Source: Peptococcaceae bacterium UBA5757
GTDB lineage: Bacteria > Bacillota > Dehalobacteriia > UBA4068
Assembly (NCBI GenBank): GCA_002418965.1
Contig: DIFD01000022.1
Coordinates: 142,070-206,069, forward strand
Length of the DNA: 64,000 nt
Reading direction: 5' to 3'
The notes under the pieces are model-generated. The model saw nothing but the letters and a program-made list of their open reading frames with translations, was not told the DNA's origin and searched no databases. Positions 10,599-61,099 of this stretch are shown one piece after another (the stretch's first letter is position 1; each line of letters starts with the position of its first letter). The position numbers and the translations under genes are program-made.

Positions 10599-11279
10599 TT
10601 ATTTCTCGTTCATAACTCTATTCATAATTTTTGCCTTGGGAGGTCCTAATATTTCCGACAAAATAATCCCATTAAGCAAATTATTTTTTTCAACCAGGTT
10701 TACAAGCTCCCAAGGATTTGTAACCTGGTCTCTTGTTGTTAAAGCCGGAGTTTGTCTTCCCACGACTGTACCTGTTTTCTGATAAGGCGAGGATTCACTT
10801 CCGAAATCGCCTTCTAAAGATGATTCACCCTCCCCATAAGGAGTGCCTTCATAAGAGGATTGCCCCTGCCCAAAAGAACCGCCTTCAGTAGATATTATCG
10901 GCTTGACCTGCTGAGACAATTTCATTGTACGAGGCTTAACTTTTGTGGGTTCCACATAACGACGTACAACATCTTCCCATGAAGTGAGCGCAGACTGATC
11001 TTGCGGAGGCTCATCGTCTAGTTCTTCAATAGCAGCGCCTTCAAAGTACGTGCCCTCAGATTGAGGGTATTCGTCATCTTCTTCCCAGCTTGAATCCCAT
11101 CTTTGAGATCCAACTGTTTGCCTGCTTTGCCTTTGGCGCATTTGGGCTTCATATGCTTCTTTGAGCCTTTTTTGCTGCTCAACTTTATTCGTTTGGCCTG
11201 TACGAGTCTTATTTTTGGTCGCATTTGTGATTACTCTTACGACCACCAGCAAAATGATAAAATAGATCAGACCGCTCAT
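10599..11279 (-). CDS. hypothetical membrane-anchored protein with a long acidic/Gln/Ser/Gly-rich low-complexity region (occupies the B. subtilis yqfB position)
   Basis: 226-aa ORF. N-terminal TM helix (LIYFIILLVVVRVI), then a disordered Q/E/S/G-rich sequence. No recognisable catalytic motif. Confidence 0.55.
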   Translation of the reverse strand: MSGLIYFIILLVVVRVITNATKNKTRTGQTNKVEQQKRLKEAYEAQMRQRQSRQTVGSQRWDSSWEEDDEYPQSEGTYFEGAAIEELDDEPPQDQSALTSWEDVVRRYVEPTKVKPRTMKLSQQVKPIISTEGGSFGQGQSSYEGTPYGEGESSLEGDFGSESSPYQKTGTVVGRQTPALTTRDQVTNPWELVNLVEKNNLLNGIILSEILGPPKAKIMNRVMNEK

Positions 11280-58057: not shown

Positions 58058-58903
58058 TCAAGGTTTGATTCCCAAGTCATATATGGTTTTTGCAGGCATG
58101 TCGTACTTTTGCGCCAGAATTTTTGCCGCTTGTTTACGGCTTTGCCCGTCTGTCATCAAATGTTGTAATTGGCTTAAAAGCTCCGGTTCATCCGGCTTCT
58201 GTGAGGTTCGCATTCGACCACCGGCTACGACCAAAGTAAACTCTCCCCGCGGTGGGTTCTCTTCAAAATGAGCAAGCACCTGCCCAATCGTACCACGTAC
58301 AGTTTCTTCATAGAGTTTGGTTAATTCCCGACCCGCAGCCATTTCCCGCTCACCGAAAATTTCAGACATATCCCGCAATACTGCAAGTAAACGGTGCGGC
58401 GCTTCATAAAAAACCAAGGTCCTTGTTTCATCCTGCAATGATAGTAATTGCTTGCGACGTGCTGATTTTTCACGCGGCAAAAAACCCTCAAAAGCGAAAC
58501 GTGCCGTATCCAGGCCGCTGCCTACCAAAGCCGTCAACATCGCATTGGCACCTGGGATCACCGTCACCAAAATACCGGCTGCAAGCGCTTCTTTGACCAA
58601 ATCAGACCCTGGGTCGCTGATACCGGGCATGCCGGCGTCAGATATTAAAGCGATGTTTTGCCCTTCTTTGAGCTTTTGCAGTAAGACAGGGCCTTTGATC
58701 ACTTTATTATGCTCATAGTAGCTGGTTAACGGTTTTTGGATGGCAAAATGATTGAGCAGATTACGGCTAGCGCGCGTATCTTCGGCCGCAACCAGATCCA
58801 CCTCACGCAAGATCCTTAAAGCACGCAAGGTGATATCTTCTAGGTTGCCGATCGGAGTAGCAACCAGATATAACATGCCGTATGGGCCAGCATTCCGGTT
58901 CAT
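58058..58903 (-). CDS. rsmI: 16S rRNA (cytidine1402-2'-O)-methyltransferase RsmI (YabC)
   Basis: 281 aa. Tetrapyrrole-methylase fold, LYLVATPIGNLEDITLRAL. Confidence 0.9.
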   Translation of the reverse strand: MNRNAGPYGMLYLVATPIGNLEDITLRALRILREVDLVAAEDTRASRNLLNHFAIQKPLTSYYEHNKVIKGPVLLQKLKEGQNIALISDAGMPGISDPGSDLVKEALAAGILVTVIPGANAMLTALVGSGLDTARFAFEGFLPREKSARRKQLLSLQDETRTLVFYEAPHRLLAVLRDMSEIFGEREMAAGRELTKLYEETVRGTIGQVLAHFEENPPRGEFTLVVAGGRMRTSQKPDEPELLSQLQHLMTDGQSRKQAAKILAQKYDMPAKTIYDLGIKP

Positions 58904-59661
58904 ACATATTCTCCCTCGTGAATCTTTTGCATTTCTTGTGTGTAAATACCCACTTCGCGATAGATAATCAAAGGCGGCATCACGGTTAAACTCCCTTGTT
59001 TTTTCTTTTGGGCCTGGAGTAAAAACAAGACGGCATCGTTGTCAATCATGGAATGCACCATACGTAACCGTATGGGATACAGGCCGTGTTCTTGCAAAAG
59101 AATCAGTAAATTGTTTAAGCGTTGCGGTTTATAACAAAGCAGTAAACTTCCGTTTTCTTTCAAAAGAACGGAAGATTGACGGATGACATCCTCAGGCTTG
59201 CAATAAAGCTCCGAACGAGCAGCGGCAAAAAGAGGATTTTCGCTGAGACGTCCGTCTTTGAGAGCAAAGTAAGGCGGATTAGCCGTCACCAAGTCAAAAC
59301 TCCTGGGTTTAAACAGTTGGTCGCTATCCCGCAGGTCAGCATGAATCACTTTGACTTGATCTTCCCCGATGCCGTTTAAAGCGACGCTACGCTGGGCCAT
59401 ATCGGCCATCTGTTCCATAATTTCCACAGCCCAAAATTTTGCCTTTTGATTGACGGTATAAAGCAAAAGCGGGAGTATGCCCGTTCCGGTACCCAAATCC
59501 AAAACATAGGGGGATGCTTGCTGTTTGATCACAGGCAAAGCAAAATCAGCCAGTAAGACGGCGTCTAAACAAAAACAAGGGGCAGTGGCATTTTGAATGA
59601 TCTTCAGCCCACCCCAGTTGAGGGTTTCAACTCTTTCCGGCAAGCTAACGATACTATCCAA
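58900..59661 (-). CDS. SAM-dependent methyltransferase YabB (tRNA m6A37 TrmN6-like)
   Basis: 253 aa. DLGTGTG SAM motif and NPPY/TANPPYF catalytic motif. Confidence 0.8.
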   Translation of the reverse strand: MDSIVSLPERVETLNWGGLKIIQNATAPCFCLDAVLLADFALPVIKQQASPYVLDLGTGTGILPLLLYTVNQKAKFWAVEIMEQMADMAQRSVALNGIGEDQVKVIHADLRDSDQLFKPRSFDLVTANPPYFALKDGRLSENPLFAAARSELYCKPEDVIRQSSVLLKENGSLLLCYKPQRLNNLLILLQEHGLYPIRLRMVHSMIDNDAVLFLLQAQKKKQGSLTVMPPLIIYREVGIYTQEMQKIHEGEYV

Positions 59662-59674
59662 AGTTTTCCCTCCC

Positions 59675-59716
59675 CGTTTCCGTTTCCGTTTCCGTTTCCG
59701 TTTCCGTTTCCGTTTT
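59675..59716. repeat. hexanucleotide microsatellite (CGTTTC)6 plus one degenerate unit [(GGAAAC)n on the coding strand] in the yabA-yabB intercistronic region
   Basis: cgtttc x6 perfect (59675-59710) followed by cgtttt. On the minus strand it reads (GGAAAC)7-GGGGAGGGAAAACUUUGG-AUG(yabB). Confidence 0.9.
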
Positions 59717-59725
59717 CTTTTGCTT

Positions 59726-60016
59726 CTATTTTACTTTGTCAGTACGGATACCTTCGGACAACAAAAAAGATAAGCAAAACAAACATTCTTCGTCTCGGGC
59801 TTGGGCAAAATGGGCATGACAAATATGAAAGCCTTCGTTATATAATTCCGTCAAGGCTTCCATGCTGCCGCTCTTTACCGTTTCGCTATTAAAACGCGCT
59901 TGCAAAAGAGCGTTTTGTTTTTCCATTTCCGATACTTTTTTTCTTAAAGAATTCAATTCGGACATCAACACGGCGAATTTTTCTTCCCATTCCAAAAAGT
60001 CCTGACTTAAGGTCAT
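59726..60016 (-). CDS. yabA: DNA replication initiation control protein YabA
   Basis: 96 aa. N-terminal coiled coil, C-terminal Zn-binding HxxH...CxxC (HICHAHF...CLFC). Confidence 0.85.
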
Positions 60017-60037: not shown

Positions 60038-61099
60038 TTAAACCTTGCTTTTATAATCGCAATCCCCGTTTAATTTTTTTAAAGTTTCTTCTACAGATTC
60101 CTCCATGGGATCATCCACAATCACTTTAACGAGATCATCATCGACGATTACTTTCTGGTCAGGAGGACAACTCTTTTTCTTAGCGCCGTTATCATCATAA
60201 CTTTCATATTTTAAGCAGCACATCAACCGCCCGCAAACACCGGAAATTTTGGTTGGATTTAAAGATAAATTTTGCTGTTTGGCCATACGAATGGAAACAG
60301 GCTGAAAATCGTCTAAGACGGAATGACAACATAAAACACGTCCGCAGGAACCAATGCCACCGATAATCTTTGCTTCATCCCGTACACCGATTTGACGCAT
60401 TTCAATGCGCGTACGGAAAACAGAGGCCAGATCCTTAACCAATTCGCGAAAGTCGATACGGCCTTCCGCCGTAAAATAAAAAATGATCTTGCCCACATCA
60501 AACGTATAGGAAACTTCGATTAATTTGATGGGTAAATTATGCTGCGCGATCTTTACTACGCAGATGCGGAAAGCTTCTTTTTCTGCCTTGATATTCTCTT
60601 CATGTTTTTTTATATCATCTTGGGTTGCTTTACGAATGACATCCTTTAAAGGACTGACCAAATCGCTTTCCGATATTTTTTTTAAGGGAATAACGACTCT
60701 CCCGAACTCTAAGCCTCTAACCGTTTCTACTATTACAGAATCACCCACGTTCAAAGCCAATCCGTCCGGGCCAAAATAATAAATCTTCCCGGCCATTTTA
60801 AAGCGAACGCCTACAATATCGACCATCTTAGCGGGATCATGGTCTGTTGCTTGCACTTTATCGGATATTATAGCTTCCCCCATTGGTACACAAGCATCGC
60901 AAACACAGGCGCAATCCGCTGGCTCTTCTGAACAAACCGTGCCGGTTGCCGCGTTGTTTTGGTCTTTTTCTACAGGGGTTTTTACACAGGTTTCAGAACT
61001 GTTTTCTTTTATTGTATCCGCATTCTCTGTTTCATTCGCTAAAACAGAATATGATTTTTCCGTATCGTTTCGATCCATATATTTTTGAACCTCCTTCAT
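60038..61099 (-). CDS. ricT: RicT/YaaT (PSP1 C-terminal domain, stage 0 sporulation protein) with ~85-aa Cys-rich N-terminal extension
   Basis: PSP1 domain (VVGVRFKMAGKIYYF...GSCGRVLCC...CGRLMCCLKYE). Likely start M8 (61078), preceded by AAGGAGG. The extension contains C-x6-C-x-C-x-C-x2-C. Confidence 0.8.
   Translation of the reverse strand: MKEVQKYMDRNDTEKSYSVLANETENADTIKENSSETCVKTPVEKDQNNAATGTVCSEEPADCACVCDACVPMGEAIISDKVQATDHDPAKMVDIVGVRFKMAGKIYYFGPDGLALNVGDSVIVETVRGLEFGRVVIPLKKISESDLVSPLKDVIRKATQDDIKKHEENIKAEKEAFRICVVKIAQHNLPIKLIEVSYTFDVGKIIFYFTAEGRIDFRELVKDLASVFRTRIEMRQIGVRDEAKIIGGIGSCGRVLCCHSVLDDFQPVSIRMAKQQNLSLNPTKISGVCGRLMCCLKYESYDDNGAKKKSCPPDQKVIVDDDLVKVIVDDPMEESVEETLKKLNGDCDYKSKV

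Follow-up and report, generated by a model that had tools for sequence, protein, structure and literature searches.

What is a perfect hexanucleotide microsatellite doing directly against the ribosome-binding site of a housekeeping gene, and could its unit number matter to the genes downstream? The array lies between yabA and yabB in the window, by which we mean the whole 64,000-nucleotide stretch analysed here (GC content, 44.7%). It occupies positions 59674 to 59715 on the minus strand; the coding strand reads (AAACGG)7 and the plus strand (CCGTTT)7. It was identified both by TRF and by direct reading. TRF reported a period of 6 and 7.0 copies with 100% matches, 0 indels and a score of 84. 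The array contains 42 nt in seven units of perfect period 6, and its RNA would be free of U and five-sixths purine. In the CGTTTC register (59675 to 59716), six perfect units and one degenerate unit are counted, just as the earlier note had read them. The minus strand was described there as (GGAAAC)7, which needs correcting: ahead of its six perfect GGAAAC units stands a degenerate GAAAAC (59712 to 59717, minus strand), which has one A too many for the phase of the unit.

The length of the array is far beyond chance. About 2e-17 perfect period-6 runs of 42 nt are expected in 64 kb of the window's composition. In the perfect-SSR census of the 64-kb window, the next-longest SSR measured 12 to 13 nt, and perfect runs at the other periods from 1 to 11 reached 19 nt at most. 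A head-to-tail unit of 1 to 9 nt that far exceeds its chance length is by definition a simple sequence repeat, and the term microsatellite is borne out by the perfect TRF match and the outlying position in the census.

The intercistronic spacer is 64 nt by the ORF coordinates (59662 to 59725, minus strand), one less than the 65 nt first given. The array takes up 42 of these 64 nt and leaves 22. It runs into the Shine-Dalgarno (SD) sequence GGGGAGGG (59668 to 59675, minus strand) and shares two bases with it, the terminal GG of the array being also the first two G of the SD. The claim that the repeat fills most of the spacer and abuts the real SD was therefore right. The periodicity persists in degenerate form through the SD, as GGGGAG (59675 to 59670) and GGAAAAC (59669 to 59663), both on the minus strand; the latter is a second degenerate repeat-like unit that sits between the SD and the start codon. 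Read from the sequence, this pattern hints that the array may have been seeded from SD-proximal sequence.

The same seven units were retrieved from a second assembly. Contig SCADCLC_10003601 of JGI metagenome assembly 3300002219 carries the array and matches the window at 100% identity across 8,762 nt. The contig's name suggests an origin in SCADC, a methanogenic alkane-degrading culture (PMC4161757). When the exact protein sequences of YabA, RsmI, RicT and YabB (translated from either start) were looked up, the only matches were one contig from JGI and Logan contigs from a single run, and every one of them was 100% identical to the window. Inside the array, one contig of the SRR5325334 Logan assembly (k=31) ends and another begins, each with five units; these ends place the array in the SRR5325334 reads and do not bear on heterogeneity. 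The two contigs (_44 and _10), one of 142 kb and one of 9.9 kb, are split exactly within the array, and two samples gave the same contig end.

An assembly or amplification artefact, in which the genome carries no such array or a count other than seven, is hardly credible on this evidence. Repeats are classic trouble spots for assemblers, and the Logan assembly does break exactly here. Such a break is ordinary de Bruijn behaviour, because the tandem array exceeds k-1 = 30 nt, and ends at five units on both sides are what a real array longer than 30 nt should give. Two different assemblies agree on seven units with flanks that are 100% identical, and single Illumina reads should be able to span 42 nt. 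The earlier note had allowed that the repeat might be an artefact of assembly; the identical count in the independent JGI assembly shows that it is not the artefact of one pipeline. For practical purposes the locus is a caution that k=31 assemblies break at a 42-nt microsatellite.

Copy number could be read in two full-length assemblies, with seven units in each. Both come from the same population in one enrichment culture; they cannot be treated as independent strains, since they are 100% identical over 8.7 kb. Two metagenome scans, one with the right junction and one with the left flank, gave no hits at all and hence no other allele of the array. As a naturally occurring marker, the array could help to tell apart strains or lineages of the uncultured organism of the SCADC culture.

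The array lies in a conserved gene string, tmk-holB-ricT-yabA-yabB-rsmI-metG, that is encoded entirely on the minus strand. tmk occupies 62695 to 62030 and holB 62006 to 61173. ricT (yaaT) runs from 60038 to 61078-61099, depending on the start. metG follows from about 57977. Between yabA and yabB, no promoter-like or terminator-like site was found on the coding strand, and the array is therefore most probably transcribed within a polycistronic mRNA. RicT/YaaT (60038 to 61099, minus strand) was called at 346 to 353 aa, some 85 residues of which form an N-terminal extension. This extension is missing in four relatives, whose proteins of 237 to 298 aa start at a conserved 'M..VGVRFK' that corresponds to residue 85 here (MVDIVGVRFK). 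The extension is acidic and of low complexity and contains a Cys cluster (CSEEPADCACVCDACVP). Either it is real or the start was mis-called, in which case ricT would have a long 5' leader.

The upstream cistron, yabA, spans 59726 to 60016 on the minus strand and encodes 96 aa. It was assigned by Pfam PF06156 (53.8 bits, cut-off 30); the NCBIfam YabA models match below their curated cut-offs. Its stop is TAG (59728 to 59726). Beyond this codon the yabA frame is open through the array (K-Q-K-K-(TE)7-T-G-R-E-N-F-G) down to a second TAG at about 59653 (minus strand), which overlaps the start of yabB. This open frame is relevant only with TAG read-through, as in pyrrolysine-using Clostridia. TAG is the stop codon in 10 of the 60 long ORFs of the window.

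The downstream cistron spans 58900 to 59661 on the minus strand. It encodes a YabB-like class I SAM-dependent methyltransferase of 253 aa, matching Pfam MTS and, below cut-off, NCBIfam TrmN. It had been named as a tRNA m6A methyltransferase. That name stands at the level of the family, where relatedness to YabB/TrmN6 is backed by an NPPY motif, by the MTS domain and by conserved synteny; the equivalog assignment does not stand, as the protein scored 49.3 bits against TrmN equivalog NF047853, whose cut-off is 350. Its homologues carry the source name tRNA1(Val) (adenine37-N6)-methyltransferase. The start codon is TTG (59661 to 59659) and not the ATG first proposed. In an alignment with 15 homologues, this TTG lies eight residues before the invariant E9-R10, matching the N termini of several of them (P0002, P0004, P0012 and P0018), and this agreement supports the start call. 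The next gene, rsmI (58058 to 58903, minus strand), encodes the 16S rRNA C1402 2'-O-methyltransferase (TIGR00096, 292.6 bits, cut-off 167.9). Its 4-nt overlap with yabB suggests that the two are translationally coupled.

The SD of yabB is strong. Its GGAGG core (59673 to 59669, minus strand) lies 7 nt before the TTG. Duplex energies were computed against the canonical Firmicute anti-SD, which was assumed because the 16S gene lies outside the window. On this basis the true SD pairs at -11.3 kcal/mol, beyond the 1st percentile (-9.4) of 12-mers from the window. Each register of the repeat pairs at -6.5 kcal/mol through GAAA(c)GGA with a one-base bulge, close to the 5th percentile (-6.6) of random 12-mers from the window. 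The proposed string of SD-like motifs is thus sustained as far as moderate anti-SD pairing goes but falls well short of the strength of the true SD. By these predicted energies the array is a row of weak-to-moderate pseudo-SDs. They cannot initiate translation, because the coding strand of the array has no T and offers no canonical start codon.

Several ways in which such an array might act are excluded by its anatomy. With a unit length divisible by 3 and a position upstream of the SD, the array cannot produce on/off phase variation. However many units are gained or lost, the reading frame stays the same, and so do the distance from SD to start and the spacing between promoter hexamers. The array is intergenic, with no in-frame start codon upstream. 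No promoter can follow it, because only 13 nt separate it from the start codon. These features leave no room for the classical on/off switching of contingency loci. Any effect of unit number would have to be graded, acting by way of leader length, spacing from the yabA stop or how many weak docking sites there are. The genes downstream are the YabB-like methyltransferase, rsmI and metG, and none belongs to the contingency-type classes of surface structures, restriction-modification or host interaction.

Coding roles were also considered and rejected. In the yabB frame the sequence before the TTG reads stop-N-R-S-K-R-(KR)7-G-G-K-T and contains no ATG, GTG or TTG. In the yabA frame the (TE)7 peptide would be made only after read-through of the TAG. 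The ORFs on the plus strand (PFPF... and RFRF...) are antisense artefacts. A role as promoter spacer or terminator was discarded too, as the coding strand has no such sites.

The RNA of the junction is not predicted to fold around the repeat. Over a 201-nt region the predicted secondary structure was not significant (MFE z = -0.70), and the repeat was essentially unpaired. No hairpin of the hmw type, with the repeats as one arm, was predicted. A G-quadruplex was rejected: the array offers only GG tracts with 4-nt loops, and ViennaRNA with G-quadruplexes enabled returned the same MFE and formed none. A known RNA family was likewise rejected, since no Rfam family matched anywhere in the window at the gathering score. 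Around the repeat, Rfam matches at E<=10 were noise only and included no Csr/Rsm match.

The ribosome-binding site itself is predicted to be mostly paired, with an unpaired probability of about 0.28 in a thermodynamic model that ignores ribosome and protein binding. In leaders built in silico with 0 to 15 units, its mean unpaired probability was 0.28 to 0.30, independent of copy number. Folding predictions pair the SD with CCCUC, a downstream motif within yabB, at -18 kcal/mol. This hairpin was not significant, being no better than those of shuffled sequences (z = -1.1; 30 of 200), and an SD-sequestering hairpin served by a standby site stays a putative arrangement.

The best YabB homologues outside the cluster of 100% identical sequences are only 43 to 47% identical, and the protein database holds no close relative. 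Four of these relatives have long contigs with the gene order kept. The repeat is absent from the yabA-yabB junction in all four. Their junctions measure -8 to +30 nt: yabA and yabB overlap by 8 nt in L123, the spacer is 30 nt in L124/L125 and 1 nt in L126, and in L127/L128 ricT abuts yabB at 2 nt. The array was said to be unusual for such an operon, and these four repeat-free, tight junctions agree with that. They also indicate that the array is a lineage-specific insertion or expansion. The junction is otherwise compact and probably translationally coupled.

Just upstream of their yabB starts, the relatives (L123 to L127) have little or no SD, for example '...aagcaagacaaaa|ATG' in L124, compared with the strong SD of the window. 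As far as sequence can tell, this contrast fits relatives that rely on translational coupling and a lineage that may have shifted to independent initiation.

The hexamer occurs widely. We scanned for (AAACGG)>=4 in one genome per species, 185,579 species in all, as a background for the hexamer rather than a census of this organism. At least 119 stretches contained it, and the phyla they come from are very diverse. Among the matches listed, which hold 127 arrays, 108 lie inside long ORFs and encode dipeptide repeats, and the other 19 are intergenic and mostly at contig ends. Some of the long-ORF assignments in high-GC genomes are probably spurious. Sporadic arrays across phyla, mostly in ORFs, point to a general slippage-prone motif and not to a dedicated regulatory element. 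Among the matches listed, an intergenic (AAACGG)n copy set against an SD is uncommon. Several arrays were found in single Myxococcota MAGs: six loci of P01_A01_bin.20, six of the Sandaracinaceae MAG CA_2019_TPBS_160 and three of the Lujinxingiaceae MAG MGR_bin152. In these high-GC MAGs the arrays lie on separate contigs, many inside long ORFs. This suggests a genome-wide expansion of (AAACGG)n in those Myxococcota lineages.

Long perfect SSRs are generally rare in prokaryotes. Mrazek, Guo and Shah (PNAS, 2007) reportedly found long SSRs with units of 5 to 11 nt mainly in free-living non-pathogens, and are said to have read them as a general tendency to expand and not as a specific function. 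SSRs of 6 to 9 nt have rarely been studied (PMC4692102). The LSSR5-11 arrays of Xanthomonas and Nostoc resemble the one described here in their pure tandem unit of 6 to 7 nt, their non-coding position, sometimes within an operon, and their environmental, non-pathogenic host (PMC4692102). Nostoc heptamer arrays lie between genes of operons, for example between pecE and pecF (PMC4692102). No function has been demonstrated for them either, and their length variation was put down to polymerase slippage. They differ in being multi-locus and enriched genome-wide, whereas the 64-kb window holds one array. The ones that were studied form G-quadruplexes, whereas none is predicted here. Among known kinds, this long-SSR type is the one closest to our array.

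Graded control by SSRs in mRNA leaders is documented in two pathogens. The (ATCTTTC)n arrays of Haemophilus influenzae hmw1A/hmw2A share a unit longer than 5 nt and a leader position upstream of the ribosome-binding site, transcription being presumed in our case (PMC12721329). Expression of hmw scales gradually with unit number and without an on/off switch, and it takes 10 to 11 or more repeats, which pair as the left arm with a G-rich partner in a long hairpin that RNase III cleaves (PMC12721329). Here a complementary partner is lacking, and the predicted structure is not significant. What hmw encodes is a surface adhesin of a host-adapted pathogen, and its copy-number polymorphism is documented; the genes found here are housekeeping genes. 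In Helicobacter pylori, the G-repeat in the tlpB leader is targeted by the sRNA RepG, and its length tunes downstream translation post-transcriptionally (PMC8295292). It resembles our array as an SSR in an operon mRNA leader (a presumed one here) and differs in being a homopolymer, where ours is a hexamer, and in needing a C/U-rich antisense sRNA.

The reading that we prefer, and consider probable without being assured, is that the microsatellite is near-neutral and evolutionarily young, that it has made the yabA-yabB junction wider and probably uncoupled it, and that yabB depends on its own strong SD. The array would have been generated by slipped-strand mispairing in the short spacer. Its seed was probably the GAAAAC and GGAAAAC motifs that still flank it. 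Its purity would reflect ongoing slippage that outpaces point mutation and not selection for a binding function. Its chief consequence would be structural, a junction of 64 nt where those of the relatives overlap or come close to it. The array is probably co-transcribed in the polycistronic mRNA, where it would form an unstructured, U-free, purine-rich tract of 42 nt directly 5' of the strong SD and the TTG. With the junction so widened, translation of yabB has probably been freed from termination-reinitiation coupling to yabA and would rely on the gene's own SD. Any effect of the array on translation is most likely modest at most. Three points weigh against near-neutrality. The exact abutment on the SD is suggestive. 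The weak, periodic complementarity to the anti-SD and the seven A(N)GGA motifs, both predicted from pairing models and motif matches, could be functional. Persistence at seven units might also need explaining, given the rarity of long perfect SSRs in prokaryotes.

We consider it unlikely that the array is a translational rheostat tuned by copy number, as the earlier note had proposed, in which unit number grades the translation of yabB and the coupled rsmI. It would do so through the distance from the yabA stop, and hence the efficiency of re-initiation, or through the number of weak 30S docking sites. A pure SSR in a presumably transcribed leader, directly 5' of an SD, speaks for such a role, and its six periodic registers each have the anti-SD affinity of -6.5 kcal/mol. 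The tight and probably coupled junctions of the relatives mean that spacing could matter, and graded control has the precedents of hmw and tlpB (PMC12721329, PMC8295292). Against it, both full assemblies of the one population have seven units and neither metagenome scan found another allele. A 6-nt unit upstream of the SD leaves no mechanism through frame, SD spacing or promoter spacing, predicted access to the ribosome-binding site does not respond to unit number, and the repeats enter no hairpin of the kind seen in hmw. The targets would be housekeeping RNA methyltransferases in a free-living anaerobe of a syntrophic community and not surface or restriction-modification genes. One elaborated form makes the array a slippage-tunable intercistronic uncoupler, in which unit number sets the count of weak docking sites, whether pseudo-SDs or sites for a GGA-binding protein, and hence the ratio in which the replication regulator YabA is translated relative to yabB, rsmI and possibly metG. 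We give this form very little credence.

It is quite improbable that the array works, whatever its copy number, as a single-stranded RNA platform, either a ribosome standby or STAB-SD-like site or a target for a GGA-binding regulator such as CsrA. Such a platform would act on the distal half of the operon, controlling how it is translated or how stable it is. The tract is predicted to be unstructured, adjoins the ribosome-binding site and has moderate anti-SD affinity. The predicted pairing of the SD with CCCUC would give a standby site something to work against, although that hairpin does no better than shuffled controls. The 64-nt spacer holds seven A(N)GGA motifs, the last of them abutting GGGGAGGG, while the minus strand of the window has 5.2 ANGGA per kb. 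A multiplicity of these motifs follows trivially from the repeat unit, which makes them identical by construction. CsrA/RsmA sites are degenerate, usually presented in hairpin loops and conserved among relatives. Our array resembles CsrA/RsmA targets and sponges in having several ANGGA motifs with the last adjacent to or overlapping the SD, and differs from them in that its copies are identical products of slippage, unstructured and lineage-specific. The motifs do not lie in hairpin loops, and the element is missing in all four relatives, so a presentation of the CsrA type is not found. No CsrB/Rsm-like or other family matched, and the 64-kb window contains no csrA-like ORF. Units that are perfect even in their 'spacer' bases are what slippage would produce, not selection on a short binding motif.

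As it stands, the array matters little beyond being a clean, long and pure hexanucleotide microsatellite of a non-pathogen in a tightly packed and widely conserved operon junction. If its copy number were variable and altered the translation of yabB and rsmI, it would show housekeeping genes for RNA modification being tuned by an SSR in an environmental Firmicute. To our knowledge, contingency-type regulation of such genes in an environmental Firmicute has not been described before. Were the uncoupler form true, contingency-type regulation would extend beyond host-adapted pathogens and surface genes.

One other tandem repeat in the window was recorded. The ORF at 10599 to 11279 on the minus strand encodes 226 aa and contains an imperfect tandem repeat of a 36-nt unit at 10808 to 10887 (2.2 copies, 75% matches, TRF score of 90). 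Its product has an N-terminal hydrophobic segment and a low-complexity repeat region rich in Ser, Glu and Gly.
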